In this document: positions 1 through 57,557 of the stretch, one piece after another
How positions within the stretch are numbered: the stretch's first letter is position 1
Layout of the letters: each line of letters begins with the position of its first letter
Assembly (NCBI GenBank): GCA_041395165.1
Contig: JAWLBA010000001.1
Location: 328,068 to 392,067, forward strand
Length of the DNA: 64,000 nt
Source: Verrucomicrobiia bacterium
GTDB lineage: Bacteria > Verrucomicrobiota > Verrucomicrobiia > JADLBR01 > JAIBCM01
Reading direction: 5' to 3'
Notes under the pieces: generated by a model
Databases searched by the model: none
Seen by the model: the letters and a program-made list of their open reading frames with translations, nothing else
Told to the model about the DNA's origin: nothing
Translations under genes and position numbers: made by a program

Positions 1-2051
1 CTTTCATAAAACACTGGCAATAGAATCAAACCAGTTATTACGGCAGCTAAAATTCCGAGATCCATGACCATGCCAAAATTTTGCAGGACGGGTTGACTAC
101 TTAAGAGCGGGGCAGAAAAACCGATGAGTGACGATAAGCCGGTGAGAGTGACAGGAACCGCTAAATGTAGATAGGTCATGGTAAAACTACCTTGATATTG
201 TTCTAAGGCGAGCAAAATGTGTAAACTGTAATCTATTGTTAAACCGATTAATAATGGAATAGTAAGTAAAGAAACCAAGGTCATAGAAATTTGAGTCACA
301 AACAAAAAAACTGCCAATAACAAAAGTGCGGTGACTAAAGTAAAAAGATTTAAAAAAACTAGTTTAACCTTTCGATGTGCGATAGCGCAAAGTGTTACCA
401 AAATGGCAAACATGGCTAGTGATAATCGTTTGAAATCTTGAACCGCGACATGGTTTAAATCACGTTGTAATTGGGGCCATGCGGTCGCGCTACGAATCAG
501 AGCAGAAAGTTGAGGATCGCCGGCATGCCATTGATTGAGTTGTTTAATGACTTGCCATGTTAATTCTCCCCAGGAACGATCCAGACCATTTTCTTCAAGG
601 GTGGTAAAAAAGGAGGTTTCAGTGATGGGAATCCAATGACCGCGATTTTGTTCTAAGGAAATCATAGACGAAGTTTGAGTGGGCAGAGTGGGTAATTGGG
701 AGGATAAGAGTTGTTGTCCACGATAAGCTTCTAAGTGAGTAGATTGCAATTGCGTCAGATCACTTTGATAAAAGGGATAGTGTCGCAACCATAAAAAACT
801 GATGCCGCATAGTAATAGAAACAGATAAAATGCGATACGAATGGACTGTGTATGTTGTTTTAAAATGTGAGAGCTTTTTTTGCTCGTTCGGGTTAACCAG
901 TCAGGCGCATTAAAATGTTTTTTTTCTAACCAAACACTCAAAAATTCTGTTGCGAAACCGGCAGTGGTAATTAATCCAATGGCGACCAATACTGCTAATT
1001 GTTGTAAACCAGGAAAATGAGAGGCGTAAAGCACAGCAAAAGCACCAGCCGTGGTTAGAGCGCTTAACCAAATTCCGTGTCGCAGCAATTTCCAAGAAAA
1101 AGAATCGCGAGAATGGCCTGTGGCAAAATGGTGATAAACTAAAATACAATAATCCATGCCTACCCCGAGTAAGATAGAGGCAAAACCTAGGCTGAGGACA
1201 TTCAACTCGCCAAAGATGAATCGACCGGCAATAAAACCGCATAATAACGCCAGTGCCTGTAAAAGCAGGATCCAAGCTAAAGGTTTTATGGAGCGATAAA
1301 AAACGAGAAAAGCCAGGGATACTAAAACTAAAGTGAACGTTAACATAATGATCATATCGCGTTGCATGGCTTGAGAAATTTCAGCCACAAAAGCGGGGCG
1401 GCCCGTAAGAAATGCGTGCGAGGAAAACTCGGGAAGGTTTTGTTGTAATGCAGATTTGATTTCATTACGAAATTGGCGTGCAGCGCCAAAATTTTTTAAA
1501 TTTTTTTGAGCGATGACTTTTAACAACAGAGGTCGATTTTCTTGAAATTGATATTGTTTTTCAAAAAAATCGCTTAAACGAAGAGGATCGAAACGTAGTC
1601 GGGCTAACTCACTTTCTTCCAAGCCTCCGGAGAATTGTTCTAACGTTTCGGCCAAACGCTGTGAACGATGAGAAGGTTGTAAAGCTTGGACCAGTTCGTG
1701 AAATGATGAATAGGGTAGTAAAACCGTGGCTAAAGCGAGTTGGGTGCTAATGGGAAGTGGACCTTCGAACGATTCCTCGGCCGATTTGATAGAGTGTGAT
1801 TGTTGTAAGAATTCCAGAAGGCTGGGGATTTTTTTTTCTAAGGCTTTTTTATCGATTGCGGTATCGAAAACTATCCATAACACATTGTCGGATTCCAGAC
1901 TTTCTTGAACTTCTTGCAATTGTTGCACGGAAGCCAGGTGGGGCGGAAATAGAGGAAGTAATTCCGTTTGGAACCGTAGCGTGCTGATAGCCCACGATCC
2001 CAATCCCAAAATAAGAAAAATGATGCCCCAACGAATTTTCCAAGATTTCAT
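1..2051 (-). CDS. MMPL/RND-superfamily membrane exporter; the 3' end runs off the left edge of the window
   Basis: Absent from the ORF track because there is no stop codon in the window. Hand translation of the minus strand from the ATG at 2051 gives MKSWKIRWGIIFLILGLGSW... It continues with many hydrophobic segments and the MMPL-type motif ...SILLGVGMDYCILVYHH... The track ORF 910..1275 is the wrong frame of this gene. Confidence 0.75.
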   Translation of the reverse strand, partial: MKSWKIRWGIIFLILGLGSWAISTLRFQTELLPLFPPHLASVQQLQEVQESLESDNVLWIVFDTAIDKKALEKKIPSLLEFLQQSHSIKSAEESFEGPLPISTQLALATVLLPYSSFHELVQALQPSHRSQRLAETLEQFSGGLEESELARLRFDPLRLSDFFEKQYQFQENRPLLLKVIAQKNLKNFGAARQFRNEIKSALQQNLPEFSSHAFLTGRPAFVAEISQAMQRDMIIMLTFTLVLVSLAFLVFYRSIKPLAWILLLQALALLCGFIAGRFIFGELNVLSLGFASILLGVGMDYCILVYHHFATGHSRDSFSWKLLRHGIWLSALTTAGAFAVLYASHFPGLQQLAVLVAIGLITTAGFATEFLSVWLEKKHFNAPDWLTRTSKKSSHILKQHTQSIRIAFYLFLLLCGISFLWLRHYPFYQSDLTQLQSTHLEAYRGQQLLSSQLPTLPTQTSSMISLEQNRGHWIPITETSFFTTLEENGLDRSWGELTWQVIKQLNQWHAGDPQLSALIRSATAWPQLQRDLNHVAVQDFKRLSLAMFAILVTLCAIAHRKVKLVFLNLFTLVTALLLLAVFLFVTQISMTLVSLLTIPLLIGLTIDYSLHILLALEQYQGSFTMTYLHLAVPVTLTGLSSLIGFSAPLLSSQPVLQNFGMVMDLGILAAVITGLILLPVFYE

Positions 2052-17503: not shown

Positions 17504-17548
17504 TAGTTTAGCAAAATTTTAGACAATGGTCAAATCAAAGCAAACGAT

Positions 17549-17565
17549 GGTAGTGTCCTAATTTG
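17549..17565. repeat. left terminal inverted repeat
   Basis: GGTAGTGTCCTAATTTG. It begins GGT, as IS1 ends do. Confidence 0.8.
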
Positions 17566-17643
17566 GATTTAGTTTTTAATAGCCATTTGAGTGTTCCTGT
17601 ATAAACCTCTACAAGGTATAACAGTCCTTTCAAAGAACATAAG

Positions 17644-18948
17644 ATGAATGAAATGAAAAATATACAGCTAATTTTAATAGATAGAATTTTTCTTGATCTC
17701 GAAAATCCAAGACATGAACCTTATGAAAACCAGGCTGAGGTAATTGAATATTTGTGTAAAGAGGAATACGTTTATCAACTTGCCAAGGATATAGTAAAAC
17801 AAGAACAGCTAAATCCATTAGAAGTTTTTGCCTTAATTCCTACAGAAGGAAATAAAAGAGGAAAAAAGGAAAATTTGTCATATACAGTTGTAGAGGGCAA
17901 TCGCCGAATGTGTGCAATCATGTTGCTTAATGACCCAGATTTGGCGCCCCCAAATCAACGTAAAGATTTTAAGAAGCTTTCTGAAGAGAATCCAAAAATA
18001 TCAGAAGTGCCTGCTGTTATATTTGATAATAAACAATCGGTCGCTACATGGCTTGAAAGAATACATGGTGGACTTCAAGGTGGTATCGGGAGGAAGCAGT
18101 GGAGTTCTGAACAAAAAACACGTCATATTGGGGATAAAAAAAATATACTTGCTCAGTCTGTTTTAGATTACGCTGAAAAAAATAAGTTTATCTCAGCAAA
18201 TGCTCGCAAAGGTAAGTTGACAACAGTTCAAAGATACCTTGGCAACCCTATGTTGCGTGAAGTGCTTGGCATCGATAATAGTAATATAGAAGATATTTCT
18301 AGGAACCGACCAAAATCTGATTTTGACCAATTATTAAAACAATTCATTGAAGATTTGCTTAATGGGGCTGTTAGCTCAAGAGCTAATGCCCCTAAAATTA
18401 TAGATTACTCCCGTTCGCTTGGAACCTTAGAAGGTATTACGGGTAAGCGAATTGTTCCAGAATCGCTTTCACAAGAACAATATATAGGAGAAAAGAAAAA
18501 ACGAAAAATACCACCGAAAAATCCTGTCAAACCTAAATACATTACCTATGAATCAGATGTTCGTGACAAATTAAAAGCTATACCCAGTTTTAAACTGGAA
18601 CAAATATACTGGTCGCTCTGTTCAATAGAGTTAGAAAAACATACTCCTCTTATTTCTGTGGGAACATGGGTATTTTTTGAATCTTTAACCGCGAAGGTTG
18701 GGCGGCCCTCTGGTACAGATTTTTATAGTTTTCTGAGCAAGAATCACCTTCAATCCATGGGATTTAATAATAAAGATGATAATTACTCAATAAGGCAAGC
18801 TTTGGAACGCATCTCTCATTATGGCAATACAACGAAACACCATAAAAAATCTGCCAACTTTAATGGAGTTCAGCTTCATAATGATATGGATACGTTGAAA
18901 GAATTAATTTGTAAATTAGCTGAGGAAGCCCAAAAAACAAACCTGTAA
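17644..18948 (+). CDS. ParB/Srx-like N-terminal domain protein with about 300 aa of unrecognised C-terminal sequence
   Basis: The motifs IDRIFLDLENPRH and VVEGNRRMCAIMLL match the ParB N-terminal (nuclease/CTPase-fold) boxes. I recognise nothing in the rest of the protein. Confidence 0.55.
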   Translation: MNEMKNIQLILIDRIFLDLENPRHEPYENQAEVIEYLCKEEYVYQLAKDIVKQEQLNPLEVFALIPTEGNKRGKKENLSYTVVEGNRRMCAIMLLNDPDLAPPNQRKDFKKLSEENPKISEVPAVIFDNKQSVATWLERIHGGLQGGIGRKQWSSEQKTRHIGDKKNILAQSVLDYAEKNKFISANARKGKLTTVQRYLGNPMLREVLGIDNSNIEDISRNRPKSDFDQLLKQFIEDLLNGAVSSRANAPKIIDYSRSLGTLEGITGKRIVPESLSQEQYIGEKKKRKIPPKNPVKPKYITYESDVRDKLKAIPSFKLEQIYWSLCSIELEKHTPLISVGTWVFFESLTAKVGRPSGTDFYSFLSKNHLQSMGFNNKDDNYSIRQALERISHYGNTTKHHKKSANFNGVQLHNDMDTLKELICKLAEEAQKTNL

Positions 18949-19010
18949 AAAGTTCTGGCCGGATGAATTAATGAATGATATTTTACTTTGAAAGTTAAAG
19001 CATTCAAAGT

Positions 19011-19895
19011 ATGGCAAAAACAATATCTCCTCTTAGGTATCCCGGCGGTAAATCTTGTTTATACGATCTTGTTTCAACCATTCTTCGTAAAAATCGTTTA
19101 GAGAGAGGTCATTATGTTGAACCTTATGCAGGTGGAGCTGGATTAGCATTATCATTACTTTATGAAGGACACGTAAGCGATATACATATTAATGACTTAG
19201 ATATTTCCATATGGTCATTTTGGGAATGTGTATTAAATCGGACAGAAGAACTAGTTGAATTAGTAGAAAAAACACCGATTACAATAAAAGAATGGCACAG
19301 ACAAAAACAAATTCATGCCACACCAAGCAAAAGCAATATTCTTCAATTGGCATTTGCAACGTTTTTTTTAAATAGAACAAACCGTTCTGGAATTATTAAA
19401 GGTGCTGGTGTTATAGGAGGAAAATCACAAACGGGTAATTATAAGCTCGATTGTCGCTTTAATCGCCAAAATCTGGTGCAACGCATTAGACGAATAGCCA
19501 AGTATCGTAATCGAATCCATCTTACCAATCTTGATGCAATCAATTTTATGCAGAAAAAGCAAAAAATTCTTACTGAAAAAACCTTTTTTTGTATTGATCC
19601 TCCTTATTTTAATAAAGGTTCATATTTATATACAAATTACTACAGTCGTGATGAACACAAGGATGTTGCTAAGGCTGTTTTGAATTTGCGACAACCTTGG
19701 ATAGTAACATATGATTATACAAAAGAAATTAAAGCTCTTTATCTACAGCGTCGCCAATTTTTATTTGACATAAATTATTCTATTCAAACAAAACGAGTTG
19801 GAACTGAAATATTGATAGCATCTAAAGGCTTGCTTTTACCTGAAGTAATAAAACATCGAAAGGCAACTCATCCTCCTTTAGTTTTAGCAGCTTGA
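19011..19895 (+). CDS. DNA N6-adenine methyltransferase, Dam/D12 class
   Basis: LRYPGGKS, EPYAGGAG (the SAM-binding motif) and the catalytic DPPY. Confidence 0.85.
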   Translation: MAKTISPLRYPGGKSCLYDLVSTILRKNRLERGHYVEPYAGGAGLALSLLYEGHVSDIHINDLDISIWSFWECVLNRTEELVELVEKTPITIKEWHRQKQIHATPSKSNILQLAFATFFLNRTNRSGIIKGAGVIGGKSQTGNYKLDCRFNRQNLVQRIRRIAKYRNRIHLTNLDAINFMQKKQKILTEKTFFCIDPPYFNKGSYLYTNYYSRDEHKDVAKAVLNLRQPWIVTYDYTKEIKALYLQRRQFLFDINYSIQTKRVGTEILIASKGLLLPEVIKHRKATHPPLVLAA

Positions 19896-20050
19896 ATTAG
19901 CACATTTCTCGCCCATTTACTTGGTTTTTCCCTATTAGTTTTTGCAGCTATTTCAATTATACGTCTTTCCTCATCGGATAAGCGTATAGGAAAAACTTTT
20001 TTTATTTTGGATTTCGGTTTTTTAGGTCTTCCAACTTTTTTCTTAGACAT
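19868..20050 (-). CDS. small basic DNA-binding protein, probably ribbon-helix-helix (MobC/CopG-like)
   Basis: A 60-aa protein with a Lys/Arg-rich N-terminus followed by FPIRLSDEERRIIEIAAKTNREKPSKWARNVLI. It converges on the methyltransferase 3' end and overlaps it by 28 bp. Confidence 0.4.
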   Translation of the reverse strand: MSKKKVGRPKKPKSKIKKVFPIRLSDEERRIIEIAAKTNREKPSKWARNVLIQAAKTKGG

Positions 20051-20100
20051 ATTTTCGTATTACAAAAATTATGTTGACAATATTTAATTTTCGTATTACA
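20051..20100. promoter_or_regulatory. divergent promoter region with two 14-bp direct repeats (candidate operator)
   Basis: ATTTTCGTATTACA occurs at 20051-20064 and at 20087-20100. Between them lies TTGACA (20074-20079). The second repeat overlaps a possible -10 box, TACATT. Confidence 0.4.
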
Positions 20101-20119
20101 TTAATTCATATTTAAGAAT

Positions 20120-20947
20120 ATGGCAAACATTTTACAAAAAGAAAAACGGGTTTTAGCAATTAACGCTTTGGCAGAGGGTAACAGCATCCGATCTATTGAA
20201 CGAATTACAGGCGTTCATCGTGACACAATTATGCGTTTAGGCGTTCGGGTTGGACAAGCTTGTGAAAATTTACTCGATGAAAAAATGCGTAATCTTAATT
20301 CTACGAACGTTCAGGTTGATGAATTGTGGGGATTCATTGGAAAAAAACAAAAAAACGCTTCTCAAGAAGATTATAAAGAAGGATTAGGCGATGTTTGGAC
20401 GTTTGTTGGGATTGATGCGGAAACTAAAATCGTTCCTTGTTACATGGTGGGTAAACGTGATTCTTATCATGCTAAAGCATTTTTATCTGATTTGGCCTCT
20501 CGCCTCACTAATCGCATTCAACTTAGCTCTGATTCATTGCGGGCTTATATTGAAGCCGTGGAAGTGGGTTTCGGCTCAGATGTTGATTATGGACAGATAG
20601 TAAAAACCTACTCAGTCACAGACCTTACAAATCAAGGTAGGTATAGCCCTGCGGAAGTGGTCAAAACCGAGCGTTCTTGTATCGTTGGAAAACCACAATA
20701 TGACAAAATCTCAACATCAATTGTTGAACGTCAAAATCTGACCATGCGAATGCACTGCCGACGCTTAACCCGTTTAACAAATGCTTTCAGTAAAAAGCTA
20801 GAGAATTTTAAAGCGGCGATTGGTCTGCATTTTGCCTATTATAATTTCGTTAAAATTCATGGTTCTTTACGCACTACACCAGCAATGGCAGCAGGCGTCA
20901 CTGATCGTTTATGGACTGTTGAGGATTTAATTGGTATGAGTGAATAG
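20120..20947 (+). CDS. IS1-family transposase (single-ORF type)
   Basis: An N-terminal HTH (GNSIRSIERITGVHRDTIMR), then DELWGFIGKK and WTFVGIDAETK, then ERQNLTMRMHCRRLTRLTNAFSKK...HFAYYNFVKIH. This is typical of IS1-like DDE transposases. Confidence 0.75.
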   Translation: MANILQKEKRVLAINALAEGNSIRSIERITGVHRDTIMRLGVRVGQACENLLDEKMRNLNSTNVQVDELWGFIGKKQKNASQEDYKEGLGDVWTFVGIDAETKIVPCYMVGKRDSYHAKAFLSDLASRLTNRIQLSSDSLRAYIEAVEVGFGSDVDYGQIVKTYSVTDLTNQGRYSPAEVVKTERSCIVGKPQYDKISTSIVERQNLTMRMHCRRLTRLTNAFSKKLENFKAAIGLHFAYYNFVKIHGSLRTTPAMAAGVTDRLWTVEDLIGMSE

Positions 20948-21227
20948 AATGCAGCCACAAGAAATTGAAAAAGCCATAGCCTCTAAAGAAGGCTGTGTTT
21001 GCTCGTTTTCTCATGCCGTAAATGTCACTGAAAAATTTAAAGGTCAAACGGTATGGGATGGTAGTGTCTTAGTTTATAATTTGTCCGGCCATAAGGCTAA
21101 ACATTGCTACGCTTGGGTTGATCCGTCCAATAACCAACTTGTAACCGTGCTTGAATTTTATCCTGTACAATCACCCGAAACGGCAGTCAGGGCTTATATT
21201 GCTTCTCGTGCTAAACCTAAACTTTAA
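20940..21227 (+). CDS. hypothetical protein (transposon passenger)
   Basis: A 95-aa ORF whose start overlaps the transposase stop. No recognisable motif. Confidence 0.35.
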   Translation: MNRMQPQEIEKAIASKEGCVCSFSHAVNVTEKFKGQTVWDGSVLVYNLSGHKAKHCYAWVDPSNNQLVTVLEFYPVQSPETAVRAYIASRAKPKL

Positions 21228-21236
21228 AATTCGTGA

Positions 21237-21884
21237 TCAAATTAGGACACTACCCAAACGATAAAGCGCTTCAAAAAGATCGGGTCGTTGCGAGAAAAAA
21301 ATGGGGTCTTTATCTTTTTGACAAAGCGCAAACCCTGTTCCGAAAAGAGGTCCATTAACCACGCAAGCATCTGTAGAAGCAGTAAGAATTTGCTCGCGGC
21401 CTTTGGCTAGAGCTGATTCTTGATCGCCTTCCACTTCGTATTTCCAACCGACTAGCAAAGCTTTAGGAAACCATTCGCGCAACGAGCGAATAATTTTTGT
21501 CGTTGGTTTAAGGTGCATAATAATTTCACCTTCGGATGTGGTAATTTTTTTGGTTGCAATGGATTGACCTGCAGAAGAGTAAACGCCAACGACTTGGTAA
21601 TCACTCACTCCAGCTGCATGAAAGACTGCGTTGATTTCGTTGTCTTTAGCAATTCTTTGGAGTTGATGAGCCAGATTGTCTGAGGTGGAGAAAGAAATGA
21701 GTTGAGTGGCAGCATTGTTCCCGAAATAAGTGCTACCCAAACCTTTTAAACAAATGACATCATCTCCTTTTGCTCGTAAAAAATTGGTCAGTTCAGTGCC
21801 GAGTTGTGAAGTAGAAAAATTCGTGATTAACCGCACTTCATCAATAGGCTCATAACTTGGGCCGCAGGTAACAATAAATTTCAT
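21237..21884 (-). CDS. phosphopantothenate-cysteine ligase-like protein (stand-alone CoaB domain); its C-terminus is rewritten by the transposon end
   Basis: IVTCGPSYEPIDEVRLITNFSTSQLG and HAAGVSDY resemble the CoaB domain. The last codons (GSVLI, then stop) lie inside the right inverted repeat. Confidence 0.55.
   Translation of the reverse strand: MKFIVTCGPSYEPIDEVRLITNFSTSQLGTELTNFLRAKGDDVICLKGLGSTYFGNNAATQLISFSTSDNLAHQLQRIAKDNEINAVFHAAGVSDYQVVGVYSSAGQSIATKKITTSEGEIIMHLKPTTKIIRSLREWFPKALLVGWKYEVEGDQESALAKGREQILTASTDACVVNGPLFGTGFALCQKDKDPIFFSQRPDLFEALYRLGSVLI
21238..21254. repeat. right terminal inverted repeat
   Basis: CAAATTAGGACACTACC is the exact reverse complement of the left repeat. 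Confidence 0.8.
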
Positions 21885-31110: not shown

Positions 31111-33077
31111 AAAAAACTATTTTAATTTTAAGCGTTTTGTCTTTCTTTGTTGCCCAAGCGGAAGAACCAGGCGGTCATTTTATTTGTGATGGTATTATAG
31201 AACCCGGTTTAAGTGTGAATGTGGACGGAAACATTACCCTTTGTCCTGGTGAGAGTGTTACTATTATTCCGCAAGTTACCACTTCAGATGGCACGAAATA
31301 TGGTCATTATGAGGATACCGATGAACAAGATAGCTTTGCTTTAAATTTTGATGATGTGGATGTGATTCCAGAGGAACTCACTTTTACCGCACCACAAAAT
31401 AATACGCTTTTTTGGATTAAGTCGGCTACTTTTAATGCTTATGGGCATTATGAGGATTGTAATGGTGGGATGCAAACGATTAAAGCTTATGACATGACAC
31501 AGATAACTTGCAAACCCTGTAAACCTGGAAAGTCAAAAGGCTCTGCTGGAAGTAATGGAGGCGGTGGAGGTGGGGGTGGCGGCGGAGGGGGAAATGGTGG
31601 GGGTGGAGGAAATGGTGGGTTAGGTGGTGGAGAGGAAAAGAAAGAAGAGGATTGTGATGCCCCTTCTCAACCTGATGAAGGCGTGGCAGAATTTATGGGT
31701 GGTGATGAGGGATGGATTGTTTGGCCAGCGCCTAACGGAGCCTGGAGCGAAGAAGAGAAAAATTCATCGACCTGGTTTTTGGCGACTCATCGTATTGTGA
31801 CGATTAACACACCGAAAGCACGCGATCTAACGGGAATCATCGCACTCAATAAAATTTCTGGTGACGAAAGTTGTATCAAACTGCTTTCGGTAAAAGATGA
31901 TGTGGAGTCGCCTTACAATTTAGGTAAACTGCTTCCGATTGTAGAGCCGGAACATAGCGGCTGTGGTATTCACGACTGGCATGCTGGAGGACAAACTTTT
32001 GGTTTTATTCCGGTGAAAGCGGGTCAGGTGGTTTTGGAGGCGGTAGTGGATCCCGATGAAGGATCACCCAAGAAAAATGCAAAATTGACGATTACGATTG
32101 CGGAAGTAGACAAGATTATTGTTAACTCGGAAAAATCGGGCAATGGAACGCAAGAGTTTGAAGGAAATAAAAAATGGGGGTTTGTGCCCGAGAAAAATCC
32201 TGACCCCGGCAAGCATTTGGTAGTTTTTTATAAGGATGTGATTAATGGTAATTTTGAAGTTCAAGATTTTGATGTCAACTTAGAGGCAAAGATAAATCCA
32301 CCCAATTTATCTGAAGACCAAGTGAATGAGAGTTGGTCTAAAATTTCAGGAGATTCTGGCCAACTTGATAAAAACGAAACCTTTAAGGTAAAATTGCAAA
32401 ATCTTCAAAAGGGAGGTGTTTACAAAGTTCAATTTGATTTGGGTATGGTTACGCTCCTCCCGAAGAGTGAAGCTAATATTGTGCTGCCTTTGGCCGGGGC
32501 AGAAGTAAAGGATATCGTGGAGGCTGATTTGGTAAAAGCGGATGCTTTTGCTGAGAAAGTGCTGGCAAATTATACTCCTGTTCAAATAAATAATCCTTTT
32601 AATGGCCTTAAATGGTTTAATAATAATGGTGCGGGAGATTATTTGGGGAGACCTGATAACAACTCCAATCCAACTGTGTGGCTTTATAATCAAGTGGATA
32701 ATAATGGGATGGGTTGTGTAGCGACTTGGTTTGAGGTTCCGGTTAGGACGGCTAAAATGAGCAATTTTATGGTGGCTTATGGGGCTCATAAGATTGGTGT
32801 AAATCCCGTATTGGCTTGGATGGCACAGGTAATTGGAACGTTTAATGACTCAGCTGCCTCGAAAAGTTGGGACGCAGGATGGGAAGTAGCCGAAGGCGCT
32901 AATTATGCGACTACTGCCCAGGCTTTGGTAAAGGATATTTTTGATGAAGCTGATATAAAAAATCAAAAAATATGGCCAAATCTGAGTCCTGTTTCGAATT
33001 ATGTGCTACACAATGCGGTATCAAATGTTAACAAAGAATTCTGTTCACCAGGCTTTACCGAAATGGAGAATCCTTAA
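31107..33077 (+). CDS. secreted protein with a Cys-rich N-terminal domain, a poly-Gly linker and a large unknown C-terminal region
   Basis: The start MKKTILILSVLSFFVAQAEE overlaps the upstream stop as ATGA. It contains GSNGGGGGGGGGGGGNGGGGGNGGLGGGEEKKEED. The track start at 31065 is probably too far upstream. Confidence 0.6.
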   Translation: MKKTILILSVLSFFVAQAEEPGGHFICDGIIEPGLSVNVDGNITLCPGESVTIIPQVTTSDGTKYGHYEDTDEQDSFALNFDDVDVIPEELTFTAPQNNTLFWIKSATFNAYGHYEDCNGGMQTIKAYDMTQITCKPCKPGKSKGSAGSNGGGGGGGGGGGGNGGGGGNGGLGGGEEKKEEDCDAPSQPDEGVAEFMGGDEGWIVWPAPNGAWSEEEKNSSTWFLATHRIVTINTPKARDLTGIIALNKISGDESCIKLLSVKDDVESPYNLGKLLPIVEPEHSGCGIHDWHAGGQTFGFIPVKAGQVVLEAVVDPDEGSPKKNAKLTITIAEVDKIIVNSEKSGNGTQEFEGNKKWGFVPEKNPDPGKHLVVFYKDVINGNFEVQDFDVNLEAKINPPNLSEDQVNESWSKISGDSGQLDKNETFKVKLQNLQKGGVYKVQFDLGMVTLLPKSEANIVLPLAGAEVKDIVEADLVKADAFAEKVLANYTPVQINNPFNGLKWFNNNGAGDYLGRPDNNSNPTVWLYNQVDNNGMGCVATWFEVPVRTAKMSNFMVAYGAHKIGVNPVLAWMAQVIGTFNDSAASKSWDAGWEVAEGANYATTAQALVKDIFDEADIKNQKIWPNLSPVSNYVLHNAVSNVNKEFCSPGFTEMENP

Positions 33078-33841
33078 TGAAAAAGTGGATGATTTTACAT
33101 TATTTTTTTATTTTTTGGTGCCCTGTAGCCAAATTAAATGCTCAGGATAAAAAATTTTCTGAGTATATTTCTGAGTTATGGCTTACAGGTAAGAAGCAAG
33201 AGGCTTTGTATATTGCTAACCAAAGGCTGCATAAAAATTCAAATGATCTAAGTGCTTGGCTTGTTAAACTAGATTATGAAATGGAGTTTTCTAAACTAGG
33301 CACACTTCCAGAAACGTTAGATAGATCAGCTAATTTGGCGGGGGCTACAACAACAACTAATTTTATAAAATATCAATCAATTATTGAATCAATGCCGGAA
33401 GTTATTAAGCCTTTAATTAAAACAATGCGGGAAATGAGCCCAGAAGACTTTGTGAAAGAACAAACAAAAGGTTTTATCACGAATAAGTCGCTATCTACTT
33501 TAATGGCTATTGAGGCCCTAGAAGCTGATGGGTTAGTAGCGCCGATTAGTAAAGAGGAAATGAAATTGCCAGATTTTCCAGAGCAAGAGGCGAGGGTAAG
33601 AGAAGTTAACGAAGTTCGAACGCAGACAAAAAAGAATAAGGCAACAAGTTTTGAGACAAATAAGGTCAGTTCACTCCCGTCAACTAATTTAATTCAATCG
33701 AAAACTAATCAAGCTATTAAAGAAAATAGCGCCACTGAAGAACTTAAGGAGAAAGTGAATTGGCTAAAATGGCCTCTAATTGTCATAGGATTAGGCTTGA
33801 TAGGATTTTTGTTGTTTCGTTTGGTTAAAAAATCAAAATAA
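33077..33841 (+). CDS. signal-peptide protein with a C-terminal TM anchor, function unknown
   Basis: The N-terminus reads MKKWMILHYFFIFWCPVAKLNA. The C-terminus reads WPLIVIGLGLIGFLLFRLVKKSK. Confidence 0.5.
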   Translation: MKKWMILHYFFIFWCPVAKLNAQDKKFSEYISELWLTGKKQEALYIANQRLHKNSNDLSAWLVKLDYEMEFSKLGTLPETLDRSANLAGATTTTNFIKYQSIIESMPEVIKPLIKTMREMSPEDFVKEQTKGFITNKSLSTLMAIEALEADGLVAPISKEEMKLPDFPEQEARVREVNEVRTQTKKNKATSFETNKVSSLPSTNLIQSKTNQAIKENSATEELKEKVNWLKWPLIVIGLGLIGFLLFRLVKKSK

Positions 33842-33852
33842 AGGAAGATAAA

Positions 33853-34377
33853 ATGAAAAAGTGGAAAATAATGTTTTTAAGTTGGATGGTGGGAAATTTA
33901 TTTTTGATTGCTACATGGGCGCAATCGATTGAGTTTGAAAAATGGGTAAAGTCGTTACCCGAAGATTCTAAAACTTTGATTGGAAAGGAGGAAACGGGCA
34001 CGCATTATTTTGCTTTTTTTCGTTTGCCAGACAATATTTTTGCCATTTATTCCTGCGATGATAAGCGAGCTAAAGAGCGTCTTCGAATGGGAAAGAGTAT
34101 AGTAAAAGACGAGCTTGGTTATAATGGTAAATTGATTGATAAAAGGGGCAATCCTGTCGTAGACGAAGAAGCGAGTATGACGGATGGCTATCACGTTTTG
34201 AAAGATAAGATGCTTAAATTGATGAGGGAAAATAATTCTTGGTATGTGAATTATATTCCCATTCAAAAAAACTTTCATGGGGTTATGAAATATTTTTATC
34301 AGGAAGAATTGAAATACCAAGGAGAGGTTGAACCCATTTCTTTAGAGTGGCAAACAAATCTGAAATGGGCTCGTTAG
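33853..34377 (+). CDS. secreted hypothetical protein
   Basis: Signal-like N-terminus MKKWKIMFLSWMVGNLFLIATWA. Confidence 0.5.
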   Translation: MKKWKIMFLSWMVGNLFLIATWAQSIEFEKWVKSLPEDSKTLIGKEETGTHYFAFFRLPDNIFAIYSCDDKRAKERLRMGKSIVKDELGYNGKLIDKRGNPVVDEEASMTDGYHVLKDKMLKLMRENNSWYVNYIPIQKNFHGVMKYFYQEELKYQGEVEPISLEWQTNLKWAR

Positions 34378-46782: not shown

Positions 46783-47277
46783 ATGCCTATAAAAAAACAA
46801 AATAACGATATTTTTAAAATTGATGAACCAGCTTTAAATCAACTTAAGCCCGAGGGGATTATTAAAGTTAAAGATCTAGTTAAAATGCTTGGAGTAGATG
46901 AAAAAGAATTCGAGCGTCTCAATCCTAAACTTGCCAATACAGATATTCAAATAAAATGTGTAGGCAATAAAACTATCGGCACTTTTCCAATTTCTGAGGG
47001 AGAGAAGCTTGAAGTAGGAGATATTTCTATTCCTGCTAACACAACTGGAACCATTACTGTGGATGATAAGGGAATTAAAATAGAAACTTCCAATAAAATC
47101 TCTTATGATGCTCCAGGACCTATTAATCCTAAAATATCACAAGTCACGTTTGACAAAAAAGGAGTTTTTCAAGACTCTGATATTAATATTGGAGAAGGCA
47201 AATTAGAAAAATTGCTTAATGAGCATTCCAATAAAATTGCTGATGTTCCTAAAATCATGCAAAAAAATTGTTTATAG
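46783..47277 (+). CDS. hypothetical protein in an AT-rich insert
   Basis: Support is the ORF alone. VKDLVKMLGVDEKEFERLNP is vaguely LysM-like. Confidence 0.35.
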   Translation: MPIKKQNNDIFKIDEPALNQLKPEGIIKVKDLVKMLGVDEKEFERLNPKLANTDIQIKCVGNKTIGTFPISEGEKLEVGDISIPANTTGTITVDDKGIKIETSNKISYDAPGPINPKISQVTFDKKGVFQDSDINIGEGKLEKLLNEHSNKIADVPKIMQKNCL

Positions 47278-47368
47278 TTGATCCTTTATAAAAATTCTTT
47301 TTGTTAAGATTAGTTTTTCGTCATTGGCTCGATAAGGTTAATGCTGTTTATAAATTATAGCACTTGAT

Positions 47369-47505
47369 CCTTAAAGTGTTTTTTGCAGCGCGAAGTGCAA
47401 GCAGCTTTGTCTTGAAAAATGTTGCAGGGCGAAATTCCGGAGCATTCTGGCGTCAAAGTTGACTTTCGAGCGGGCAAGCTTGAGTTTGATATTAAAAATC
47501 TTTAA
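47369..47505 (+). pseudogene. diverged duplicate of the clpB 3' end (last ~45 codons) with an internal stop
   Basis: Hand translation gives [40 protein letters not shown]. The intact clpB reads [43 protein letters not shown]. By hand count, 87 of 108 aligned nt are identical (46511-46618 against 47380-47487). Confidence 0.75.
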
Positions 47506-47514
47506 TCCTTAATA

Positions 47515-48057
47515 ATGGTAAAATTAGTTGCTATATTATCTATATTGGGCGTCACAAGATTTATCATTCACTCCCAGAACTTAGTTGAAAACGGCGGTTT
47601 TGATCAGGGATTGCGTGGTTGGAAGATTAAAGGCGGAAACATTAAATTGGCCAATGAAATTAATGGTTCTAAAAAGAACCCCATTTTAATGGTTGAACTT
47701 AATAAAAAGAAACAAAGCTTTTATCGAGAGTATGAATTCAAAGAGGGAATGGAATTTGTTAAAATCACATTTAAAGTAAAAACGAGCGAAGATTTTGCGA
47801 TATGCGAAGGAACTCAAAATTTTTTAGAGCTAGAGTTTTTAAATAAATTAACTTGTGATGAATATGCTTATTGGTCTCCTGAAATAAAACGTTCCATGAA
47901 TTGGGTTGAAAAAAGTGATATTTTTAAGATTAATAAACTCTATTTTGAGTCGGAATCTCAGACAAAACCACAGTTTGGAATTATCCTTCATGCAGGAGTA
48001 GGAAAAATTTATTTTGATGATTTTAGAGTGGAGCCAGCGAGTCGTGGCCCTTATTGA
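47515..48057 (+). CDS. small secreted protein with a CBM4/9-like (galactose-binding-like) flavour; paralogue 1
   Basis: A signal-like N-terminus, then NLVENGGFDQGLRGWKIKGG near the N-terminus and GKIYFDDFRVE near the C-terminus. Confidence 0.45.
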   Translation: MVKLVAILSILGVTRFIIHSQNLVENGGFDQGLRGWKIKGGNIKLANEINGSKKNPILMVELNKKKQSFYREYEFKEGMEFVKITFKVKTSEDFAICEGTQNFLELEFLNKLTCDEYAYWSPEIKRSMNWVEKSDIFKINKLYFESESQTKPQFGIILHAGVGKIYFDDFRVEPASRGPY

Positions 48058-48087
48058 CAGGGTTAAAAAAAACTTTAAAACTCATTT

Positions 48088-48606
48088 ATGAATAAAATTT
48101 ATTTCAGCCTTTTTCTCTTTTTAATTTTGTCTCAACTTCAGGGACAAGTTTTAAGCCCCAACGTTTTAGCGAATGGTGATTTTACTAAGGGTAAAGCAGG
48201 TTGGCAAGGCGAGGGAAGAATAGTCAAAATAAAAGAGGGCAAAGAAAATACAGAAGGCAATCCTGCTCTGGTTATTAATTTAGACAAAAAGAAAGAACAA
48301 AGTTTTCATTGTTTGGCGGAGATTCCTAAAGGCACAAAATCAGTTAAACTTAGTTTTAAAATATTAACGAGTGAAGATTATGAAGTTCAAGAATCGCAGC
48401 CACTCATTACTATTCTCCGAGCAGGCACAGCCCAATATGATGCTTTGATTCGCCGGCAAGCTTTGGAAAAGCAAGTAGAATGGCAGGAAAAACGCGCTTC
48501 TATTTCGCCTATTGCAACTGAGCGCATGGGAATTGTAGTCACCATTCGTCCGGGTAAAGGCAAGGTTTACTTCGATGATTTAGTGGCAGAAGCCAGGGCA
48601 GATTAA
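48088..48606 (+). CDS. small secreted protein; paralogue 2 of the 47515 gene
   Basis: MNKIYFSLFLFLILSQLQG, then NVLANGDFTKGKAGWQGEG and GKVYFDDLVAE. The architecture matches the upstream gene. Confidence 0.45.
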   Translation: MNKIYFSLFLFLILSQLQGQVLSPNVLANGDFTKGKAGWQGEGRIVKIKEGKENTEGNPALVINLDKKKEQSFHCLAEIPKGTKSVKLSFKILTSEDYEVQESQPLITILRAGTAQYDALIRRQALEKQVEWQEKRASISPIATERMGIVVTIRPGKGKVYFDDLVAEARAD

Positions 48607-56600: not shown

Positions 56601-57557
56601 TTAAAAATGTTTGACAACGCCGACACCAACCGAAGGTTCTAATTTTTCTGTGGTGCCATTCCTAATGTAGCCTCCTTTGATAAAGGTTTCCATGTCTTTT
56701 ATTTTATAATCGAGTTTTCCCGTGATTTCATTGGTTCGACCTTTGTTAATATCGTAGATATGTTCAATAGCCATATTAAAACTTTTGTTAGGATTTTTTA
56801 TGAAATTTACATTAGCAGTCTGAGTTGTATTCCAAGAATCTCCAGGGCCTGGTGGATTGGAATATTTAAGTTTTCCGGCAAAATCCCAAACATCATTTGG
56901 TTTATATTTGCCTTCAATAGTATTTTCAATGGTATTGCCTTTTTCTTCGTTAGTTTTAAATCCTGTTGAGTTTTTTACTGTCCATTCATCAGAAAATTTG
57001 CGTTCACCATCCAATTTGAAATCAGCTTCTTTCCCTATAAAACTATAACCTGCCGAACCGCTAATTTTTGTTTCTTTATCGATTTGCCAACTTGCATTAA
57101 CATTCGTGTTATCAGTAACAGTGCCTTTGGCTTGATCAAAGGCTAATTTTTCTCCAACGCCAATTTTGACATCGGGAGAAGCGGCATAAGTAGCCTGTCC
57201 ATCTAGCTTAACTTGTTGCTTTCCTGAATCAAAGGCCGCGGAACCAATAACTTCAGCTTTAGGAGTTATTTTATCCGTGGCTTTAATGGAACCATACCCT
57301 GAAATTTCAGCATCCTTGCTGTAGTTAAGCTTTTTGCCTCCTTCAACTTCTACTTTGGTATCGCCAGAGGTCGAAACGCTTTTCCAGCCGGTTTTAATTT
57401 CTTTGTCTTTAGGATTAACATCAACCGAGGGAGTTGTTGTGGGTTTATCTGATTGAGGCGGTTTTGGAATATCTTGTGATTTTGTTTCTTCTGCTTTTGC
57501 TTGTTTATCTTTATCTTCTTCCATACTTACCTCGTTTGCTAAGATTGGTGTAAACAA
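56601..57557 (-). CDS. beta-strand-rich hypothetical protein with an OMP-like C-terminal Phe
   Basis: Alternating hydrophilic and hydrophobic short strands ending ...VGVGVVKHF. The N-terminus is acidic and Lys-rich with no visible signal peptide. Confidence 0.4.
   Translation of the reverse strand: MFTPILANEVSMEEDKDKQAKAEETKSQDIPKPPQSDKPTTTPSVDVNPKDKEIKTGWKSVSTSGDTKVEVEGGKKLNYSKDAEISGYGSIKATDKITPKAEVIGSAAFDSGKQQVKLDGQATYAASPDVKIGVGEKLAFDQAKGTVTDNTNVNASWQIDKETKISGSAGYSFIGKEADFKLDGERKFSDEWTVKNSTGFKTNEEKGNTIENTIEGKYKPNDVWDFAGKLKYSNPPGPGDSWNTTQTANVNFIKNPNKSFNMAIEHIYDINKGRTNEITGKLDYKIKDMETFIKGGYIRNGTTEKLEPSVGVGVVKHF

Follow-up and report, generated by a model that had tools for sequence, protein, structure and literature searches.

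A probable PD-λ-5-type anti-phage defence operon as passenger of an IS1-family transposon in a Verrucomicrobiia bacterium

What is the function of a ParB-like protein and a DNA adenine methyltransferase that lie side by side as the cargo of a small transposon? The question is raised by a 64,000-nucleotide stretch of contig JAWLBA010000001.1 (positions 328,068 to 392,067 of the forward strand; assembly GCA_041395165.1) from a Verrucomicrobiia bacterium, the whole of which is referred to here as the window. Two genes on the plus strand, named here A and B, are separated by 62 nt in the list of open reading frames (ORFs) and together account for 2,252 bp of the 3,706-bp element that carries them. 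A first-pass annotation, made from the letters of the DNA, had described them as a ParB-like-domain protein and an orphan Dam-type methyltransferase, and had proposed a candidate undescribed mobile module of the restriction-modification (R-M) or defence kind. The coordinates and the quoted motifs were reproduced: the translation of A contains LDLENPRH at residues 17-24 as well as VVEGNRRMCAIMLL, and that of B contains YPGGKS, EPYAGGAG and DPPY.

This report addresses the identity of the pair, its possible mode of action and the element that carries it. The pair is very probably a PD-λ-5-type anti-phage defence operon, travelling as the passenger of an IS1-family transporter insertion sequence (tIS) whose recent insertion lies at the 3' end of a DFP/CoaB-like gene. 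Its identity as a member of PD-λ-5 carried by the tIS can be regarded as secure, with high confidence.

Identity and linkage of the gene pair

The identity of the pair comes from the defence-system models of PADLOC. Protein A matches PDLC04000 (PD-Lambda-5_A) with an E value of 3.8e-174, residues 6-431 being aligned to positions 4-426 of a model of 428, and a further 23 PD-Lambda-5_A models also match it. Protein B matches PDLC04018 (PD-Lambda-5_B) with an E value of 1.5e-125, residues 1-284 on positions 1-283 of 291. Both matches are full length, which places the module in a defence type that has been described before. The functional intuition of the first-pass annotation was right, and its claim of novelty is refuted; it had itself named a database match to a described type as telling against novelty, and PADLOC returned one in PD-Lambda-5. 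The system is present in both PADLOC and DefenseFinder and has been counted in many genome censuses.

PD-λ-5 was obtained by functional selection from Escherichia coli ECOR7 as the proteins RCQ13837.1 and RCQ13838.1, annotated as "ParB/HEPN, methyltransferase" (Vassallo 2022, Nat Microbiol, PMC9519451). In E. coli the prototype restrained nine of ten phages, with the strongest protection against T-even phages, and its cloning required an mrr-deleted host (PMC9519451), a need that fits an active adenine methylase.

The reading of B as a D12-class N6-adenine methyltransferase holds, since it matches Pfam PF02086 above the curated cut-off (E 1.9e-14; 54.4 bits against 22). With the NCBIfam Dam model TIGR00571 it scores 55.2 bits, under the cut-off of 114.85, so B is Dam-like and not a Dam orthologue. 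Its nearest solved structure is the adenine methyltransferase of PDB entry 7m6b (E 1.6e-12), and its NCBI product name is "DNA adenine methylase" (MEZ5404931.1). Judged from the translations, the catalytic motifs of B and the family-invariant residues of A are intact.

The linkage of the two genes was surveyed in species-representative genomes of Alpha- and Gammaproteobacteria, Acidobacteriota, Zixibacteria and other groups, at 80 loci in all. Three loci end at a contig edge, which leaves 77 with room for B, and in 76 of these a B homologue follows A directly downstream on the same strand, mostly after a gap of about 45-120 nt. The co-occurrence with a Dam-like gene that the first-pass annotation had suggested looking for is therefore near-obligate across phyla, and the description of the methyltransferase as an orphan is rejected. 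The lone exception (locus L053, 6359-9266) has no methylase. Its two A paralogues stand in tandem, with pentapeptide-repeat genes after them, and one of the two has lost the invariant lysine of the family (NTTEHH), which suggests decay or neofunctionalisation.

The same linkage bears on whether A is a plasmid or phage partition (segregation) ParB beside a methylase that is unrelated cargo. A does have ParB-like motifs and an N-terminal domain of that fold. However, the linkage in 76 of 77 loci speaks against a chance neighbour, the element has neither a ParA partner nor a centromere-like repeat array, the location is chromosomal and inside a 3.7-kb transposon, and Pfam ParB_N does not match at the sequence level. 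With the linkage survey and the missing ParA partner, the partition reading is effectively refuted and carries a vanishingly small probability.

The family to which A belongs is large. A word-indexed search with A returned 652 proteins at E≤1e-5, none of them functionally named, and an exhaustive profile search returned 4,045 clusters (50% identity) at E≤1e-3, with 619 at E≤1e-30. The divergence of A and that of B are correlated (r = 0.69 over 2,080 locus pairs), and B is the more conserved protein in 65 of 65 loci: its homologues are on average 60% identical to the protein of the window, those of A 46%. This agrees with the number of PADLOC models, 25 for A and only two for B. Additionally, the pair was found in Paracoccus phage Pkon1, on a conjugative Kosakonia plasmid, and next to a Shedu gene in one Acidobacteriota genome.

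Some other loci resemble the pair in part. The matches in a P2 variant (OU784549.1; L082, 228-3266) and in phage Wphi (gp98-gp96-Mth; L169) are hotspot cargo next to the genome end. They were rejected as PD-λ-5, being a different trio of the ParB-like gp98, the unknown gp96 and a cytosine-C5 (m5C) methylase; the P2-type ParB-like protein (Wphi gp98) has only the N-terminal domain in common with A, at 30% identity over residues 10-162. Among 5,426 E. coli genomes, blastn with a Pseudomonadales B gene gave no match. With the Kosakonia plasmid pair, the sole target was a different P2-hotspot cargo of a Dam-like methylase and an AAA ATPase: in 96 of these genomes the A+B query aligned weakly at the DNA level, with about 65% identity over ~390 nt, to a gene annotated as "DNA adenine methylase". 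The one such locus examined, in E. coli RM14723 (L168, 4725-7285), lies in the hotspot of a P2-like prophage, where the gene of a Dam-like methylase precedes that of an AAA-family ATPase, another pairing of a methylase with an unknown partner.

Protein A and a possible mode of action

Protein A has no match in Pfam or NCBIfam, and its domains were therefore read from an AlphaFold (AF2) model built on an 80-sequence alignment, with a mean predicted local distance difference test score (pLDDT) of 90.5 and the four regions listed in Table 1. The top PDB matches of the whole model in Foldseek are Noc with DNA (7ol9; prob 1.0, E 1.6e-3), pNOB8 ParB-N and the GmrSD enzyme BrxU, all with modest scores. 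Invariant in the family are NPRH (21-24) and EGNRR (84-88), which correspond to box I of ParB and to its nucleotide-binding GERR box. The modest fold matches agree with these motifs, and the assignment of the N-terminal domain to the ParB/Srx superfamily, made in the first-pass annotation, is weakly but consistently supported.

A second invariant cluster (H141/G143/G147/G149/R150/W153) falls in a loop of lower confidence. The glycine-rich loop at residues 141-160 (18064-18123), which reads H-G-G-x-Q-G-G-x-G-R-K-x-W, is the best-conserved stretch outside the ParB motifs. In the C-terminal domain, K398, H399 and D414 are invariant.

The A family has two C-terminal variants, a "type 1" found in the window (GNTTKHH) and a "type 2" found on the Kosakonia plasmid. 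Aligned by hhalign (prob 84%, E 7.7e-6), they bring Glu, Arg and His into register, and are probably homologous. When the C-terminal domain of the window's protein is modelled alone, it reaches a pLDDT of 93.5 and a predicted template modelling score (pTM) of 0.89. Foldseek against the viral library BFVD gave nothing for this domain, and neither did Pfam for ten family members with divergent C-termini.

Several points weigh against reading the window's pair as an anti-phage system with an effector of the kind named for the prototype. The anti-phage phenotype, for which the prototype was directly selected, is demonstrated in the E. coli prototype alone, and the likeness of A and B to those tested proteins is read from PADLOC profiles alone. 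Our literature search found no mechanistic study of PD-λ-5; the later papers count it in censuses or repeat the original statement. A Pfam scan of the 80 aligned A homologues at E≤1 gave no consistent family, so that no nuclease or RNase can be assigned from sequence, and a profile search of A against PDB sequences gave nothing at E≤1. The acid-Gly-amide-x-Arg pattern of EGNRR resembles DGQQR/DGQHR of GmrSD and DndB, but hhalign of A against a small profile of three GmrSD proteins (GmrSD_N) was not significant (prob 0.2%), and membership in the GmrSD subfamily is therefore not claimed. The fold search that the first-pass annotation had proposed for A thus gave ParB-family matches for the whole model and, for the isolated C-terminal domain against the PDB, only generic helical bundles without significance. 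The HEPN entries 4nqf and 7bxo stand among these bundles at E≈1-2 and with template modelling (TM) scores of 0.35-0.39. The HEPN motif Rx4-6H does not occur at the conserved site of the domain, which reads R389-x9-H399 (…RISxYGNTTKHH…). For the A of the window, these results neither confirm nor exclude the prototype's "HEPN" label.

In agreement with the first-pass annotation, no restriction endonuclease of the PD-(D/E)xK, HNH or GIY-YIG kind, nor of the PLD kind, was recognised among the element's five ORFs (Pfam, NCBIfam, PADLOC, PHROGs). This leads to an alternative in which A is a ParB/DndB-like, nucleotide-dependent regulator of the methylase, and the module serves as epigenetic or anti-restriction cargo, shielding the DNA of the element in new hosts. 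The lack of a detectable nuclease domain in A would suit a regulator, as would the higher conservation of B and the case of DndB, a ParB-superfamily protein that is described as regulating a DNA-modification system negatively (PMC10853773). However, the prototype pair gives phage defence, which a methylase with its regulator would not. The very large and fast-diversifying A family, with its swappable C-terminal domains, is typical of effectors or sensors; the invariant polar residues of the C-terminal domain and the Shedu neighbour, which points to a defence island at one locus, also speak against a mere regulator. We consider the regulator improbable, and the anti-restriction and partition alternatives of the first-pass annotation are without support. 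Its reading of the pair as a modification-linked, R-M-like defence module is itself supported.

Under the defence reading, a mode of action can be outlined, to which we give somewhat less than an even chance in its steps. B would mark the host DNA with N6-methyladenine at a short motif, and its strong conservation suggests that this motif is conserved as well. A would bind DNA through its ParB-like, nucleotide-gated N-terminal domain (NPRH, EGNRR) and the helical Noc/ParB-like DNA-binding region that follows, and would act on DNA that lacks the mark, which amounts to an R-M-like discrimination between self and non-self. Two seats of the damaging activity are conceivable. One is the ParB/Srx domain, with nicking or nucleoside triphosphatase (NTPase) activity as in conflict proteins elsewhere in the ParB superfamily; the other is the helical, HEPN-like C-terminal domain, in which a Lys-His pair is invariant. 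An abortive outcome may follow where restriction fails. Since a host that lost B would be exposed to A, the pair probably also stabilises its transposon. The near-obligate linkage of A to B, the far more conserved methylase, the invariant ParB-like core and the two exchangeable C-terminal variants constrain the mechanism, and make EGNRR, H141-R150 and K398/H399 the residues worth mutating.

The carrier transposon and its relatives

The features of the element and of its insertion site are collected in Table 1.

Table 1. Features of the element, its gene products and its insertion site (positions in the window unless given as residues of A)
Feature	Position	Strand	Basis
Whole element, 3,706-bp IS1-family tIS with passenger genes	17549-21254	+	Inverted repeats (IRs), target-site duplication (TSD), Logan contig, empty site
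Left 8-bp TSD copy, CAAACGAT	17541-17548	.	Direct repeat
Left terminal IR, 17 bp, GGTAGTGTCCTAATTTG	17549-17565	+	0.09 chance matches expected; same 17-mer ends 36 sister elements
Gene A, PD-λ-5 component A, 434 aa	17644-18948	+	ORF list; PADLOC PDLC04000
A: ParB/Srx-like α/β N-terminal domain	aa ~1-128		AlphaFold model
A: helical domain	aa ~130-260		AlphaFold model
A: disordered basic linker of low confidence	aa ~262-300		AlphaFold model
A: all-helical C-terminal domain	aa ~301-434		AlphaFold model
Gene B, PD-λ-5 component B, 294-aa D12-class (Dam-like) N6-adenine DNA methyltransferase	19011-19895	+	PADLOC PDLC04018, Pfam PF02086
60-aa basic protein	19868-20050	-	Weak Pfam DUF6290, E 0.0018; homologue in 25/80 sister loci
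Divergent promoter/operator-like region, 69 nt	20051-20119	.	Two 20-nt direct repeats (ATTTTCGTATTACA core) 36 nt apart
IS1-family DDE transposase, 275 aa	20120-20947	+	Pfam DDE_Tnp_IS1; NCBI "IS1 family transposase" MEZ5404933.1
orf95, 95-aa accessory ORF	20940-21227	+	Homologue in 62/80 sister loci
Target gene, DFP/CoaB-like	21237-21884	-	Pfam DFP
Right terminal IR, perfect complement of left	21238-21254	-	Repeat search
Right 8-bp TSD copy, CAAACGAT	21255-21262	.	Direct repeat

The first-pass annotation had placed the pair on an AT-rich element that has demonstrably transposed, and this is borne out by the IRs, the TSD and an empty site in a related metagenome-assembled genome (MAG). The guanine-plus-cytosine (GC) content is 0.34-0.38 in the element against about 0.43-0.45 in its flanks. 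Three independent lines show that the element moved as a unit. First, a contig of the Logan read-level assemblies (SRR28338157_566007; L001), 3,706 bp long, is 100% identical to the exact IR-to-IR interval, so that the element is either multi-copy or polymorphic in that sample. Second, the related Verrucomicrobiae MAG GCA_019694135.1, at 88-94% nucleotide identity and with the same gene order, has the empty site: its TetR gene and a 211-aa DFP gene are adjacent, with a single CAGACGAT at the target position, and the two flanks of the window overlap on it in alignment by exactly 8 bp. Third, the insertion swapped the last codons of the target gene, which now ends in ...EALYRLGSVLI* (215 aa) with its stop inside the IR, and with the element removed in silico it again ends in ...EALYRLL* and has 211 aa, as many as its orthologue in that MAG. 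The insertion into the Verrucomicrobiia genome, itself a MAG, appears recent. The host flank proteins (DFP-like, TetR) were also looked up in the Logan assemblies, and none was found there.

The transposase matches Pfam DDE_Tnp_IS1 (E 5.6e-8; 33.7 bits, cut-off 24.1), and with the NCBIfam IS1 equivalog it scores 59 bits, under the cut-off of 100, which indicates a divergent IS1 subgroup. For the accessory orf95, searches of Pfam, NCBIfam, PHROGs and PADLOC gave no match. The gene of the 60-aa protein is convergent with B, which it overlaps by 28 bp, and divergent from the transposase; its product is possibly a ribbon-helix-helix-type regulator. Sigma-70-like sites, which are consensus matches only, lie back-to-back at 20074-20102 (+) and 20080-20051 (-), and the arrangement from 19868 to 20119 looks like an autoregulated switch. 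An IR-like sequence at 21060-21076, inside orf95, in direct orientation and with three mismatches, was rejected as a functional third end, being absent from all 36 sister elements; it is probably a chance occurrence or a remnant.

At least 527 relatives of the transposase occur in metagenome contigs, and the best 80 transposase loci (L087-L166) were sampled. In 36 of them both ends are the same 17-mer GGTAGTGTCCTAATTTG with at most three mismatches, in spite of transposases that are only 55-69% identical to that of the window. These 36 sister elements measure 2.1-5.8 kb from IR to IR, and 31 of them have a perfect 8-bp TSD. Across the sample, the orf95 homologues usually lie just 3' of the transposase gene or overlap its end. 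Six loci (L134, L135, L140, L144, L159, L160) have a transposase ORF of 550-630 aa, apparently fused to an upstream N-terminal region.

Neither A nor B occurs in any of the 80 sampled sister loci. The Pfam and PADLOC matches among 52 cargo ORFs of at least 110 aa are nearly all to domains of conflict systems. GmrSD_N with GmrSD_C is found in three proteins; SocA/Panacea, PIN and Rap1a are found in two each; Zeta toxin, Schlafen AlbA_2, P63C and DUF3800 also occur. One locus (L117) has an N6_N4 methylase fused to an Mrr-type nuclease, beside NYN and GmrSD genes, and another (L158) has a DndB-like protein. This defence-biased cargo is a lead as regards enrichment over random ORFs. Our literature search found no description of this tIS subfamily or of its defence-biased cargo, and nothing on "ISMhu11".

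Such company suggests another role for the pair, namely that it is mainly an addiction (post-segregational killing) module which stabilises the transposon or the host replicon, with phage defence as an incidental effect. The pair sits inside a small transposon, the sister elements often have cargo of the toxin-antitoxin type (PIN, Zeta toxin, SocA/Panacea), and R-M systems are generally known to behave as addiction modules. Against this, the pair occurs without this transposase in 76 surveyed loci, which means that its persistence does not depend on the element, and the prototype was selected directly for phage protection. The roles in addiction and in defence are also mutually compatible. An addiction module above all else is hardly probable, and we retain the defence operon as the preferred reading.

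Two further readings can be joined to it, and as a joint proposal they are tentative and on balance unlikely. The carrier would be an uncatalogued, widespread IS1-type tIS subfamily with a slot for one cargo module, and the type 1 C-terminal domain of A would be a non-HEPN effector with new chemistry. The former is suggested by the nearly invariant 17-bp ends, the 8-bp duplications, the conserved orf95 and a cargo limited in each case to a single compact module of the defence or toxin kind; the latter by the R-x9-H spacing and the invariant Lys-His. If true, the tIS subfamily would be a minimal vehicle dedicated to moving immune genes in environmental bacteria.

As a defence system the pair adds little, since PD-λ-5 is already catalogued, and its range is now extended to Verrucomicrobiota. 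The mobile context is the most interesting part of the locus, and the transposon family is the most novel result. The filled and empty sites in sister genomes provide a clean, datable mobilisation event. With the carrier, a family of very small transposons comes to light that transport immune or toxin modules singly, which bears on the spread of defence genes outside phages, plasmids and large islands.

Elsewhere in the window, AT-rich patches (GC 0.33-0.36) at 33077-34377, 46783-48606 and 56601-57557 contain six ORFs (164-318 aa) that Pfam does not recognise; these may be further foreign or lineage-specific genes. Over positions 1-64000, neither a tRNA gene nor an Rfam family scoring above threshold was found, and the GC skew is positive almost throughout.

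Comparison with known systems

The closest known system is PD-λ-5 of E. coli ECOR7, which is likewise a two-gene operon in the order A, B, with a ParB-like N-terminal domain and a helical C-terminal domain in A and a D12 methylase as B. The window differs from the prototype in its host, which belongs to Verrucomicrobiota, and in its carrier, an IS1-type transposon instead of a prophage. Additionally, its A has the type 1 C-terminal variant (GNTTKHH), distinct in sequence from the type 2 of the enterobacterial plasmid.

GmrSD/BrxU and SspE, which combine a ParB-like DUF262 NTPase with a DUF1524 HNH domain, share with A the ParB/Srx N-terminal domain, the likeness of EGNRR to DGQQR and a role in defence, and BrxU is among the best fold matches to A. 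However, A is without an HNH/DUF1524 domain and the profile comparison is non-significant. These enzymes also attack modified DNA or sense phosphorothioated DNA, and do so without a partner methylase.

Type II R-M systems with a Dam-like methylase (DpnII/MboI type) resemble the pair in the tight linkage of a D12 methylase to a gene whose product should act on unmodified DNA, and in being mobile modules that could act as addiction modules. The pair is unlike them in that A lacks a recognised restriction-endonuclease fold, and in that B is far more conserved than A, whereas classical specificities co-vary.

The hallmarks of the IS1 family, as given in ISfinder, are ends of the form GGnnnTG and an 8-bp TSD. 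The ends of the window's element begin with GGnnnTG and its TSD is 8 bp. The concept of the transporter IS has been described (PMC9330008), and the element has, like the IS1-family members of this kind, a single DDE transposase with the IS1 Pfam domain and passenger genes inside its IRs. It stands apart from them by an end of 17 nt that is nearly invariant across transposases of 55-69% identity, by the extra orf95, and by a cargo dominated by defence and toxin genes.

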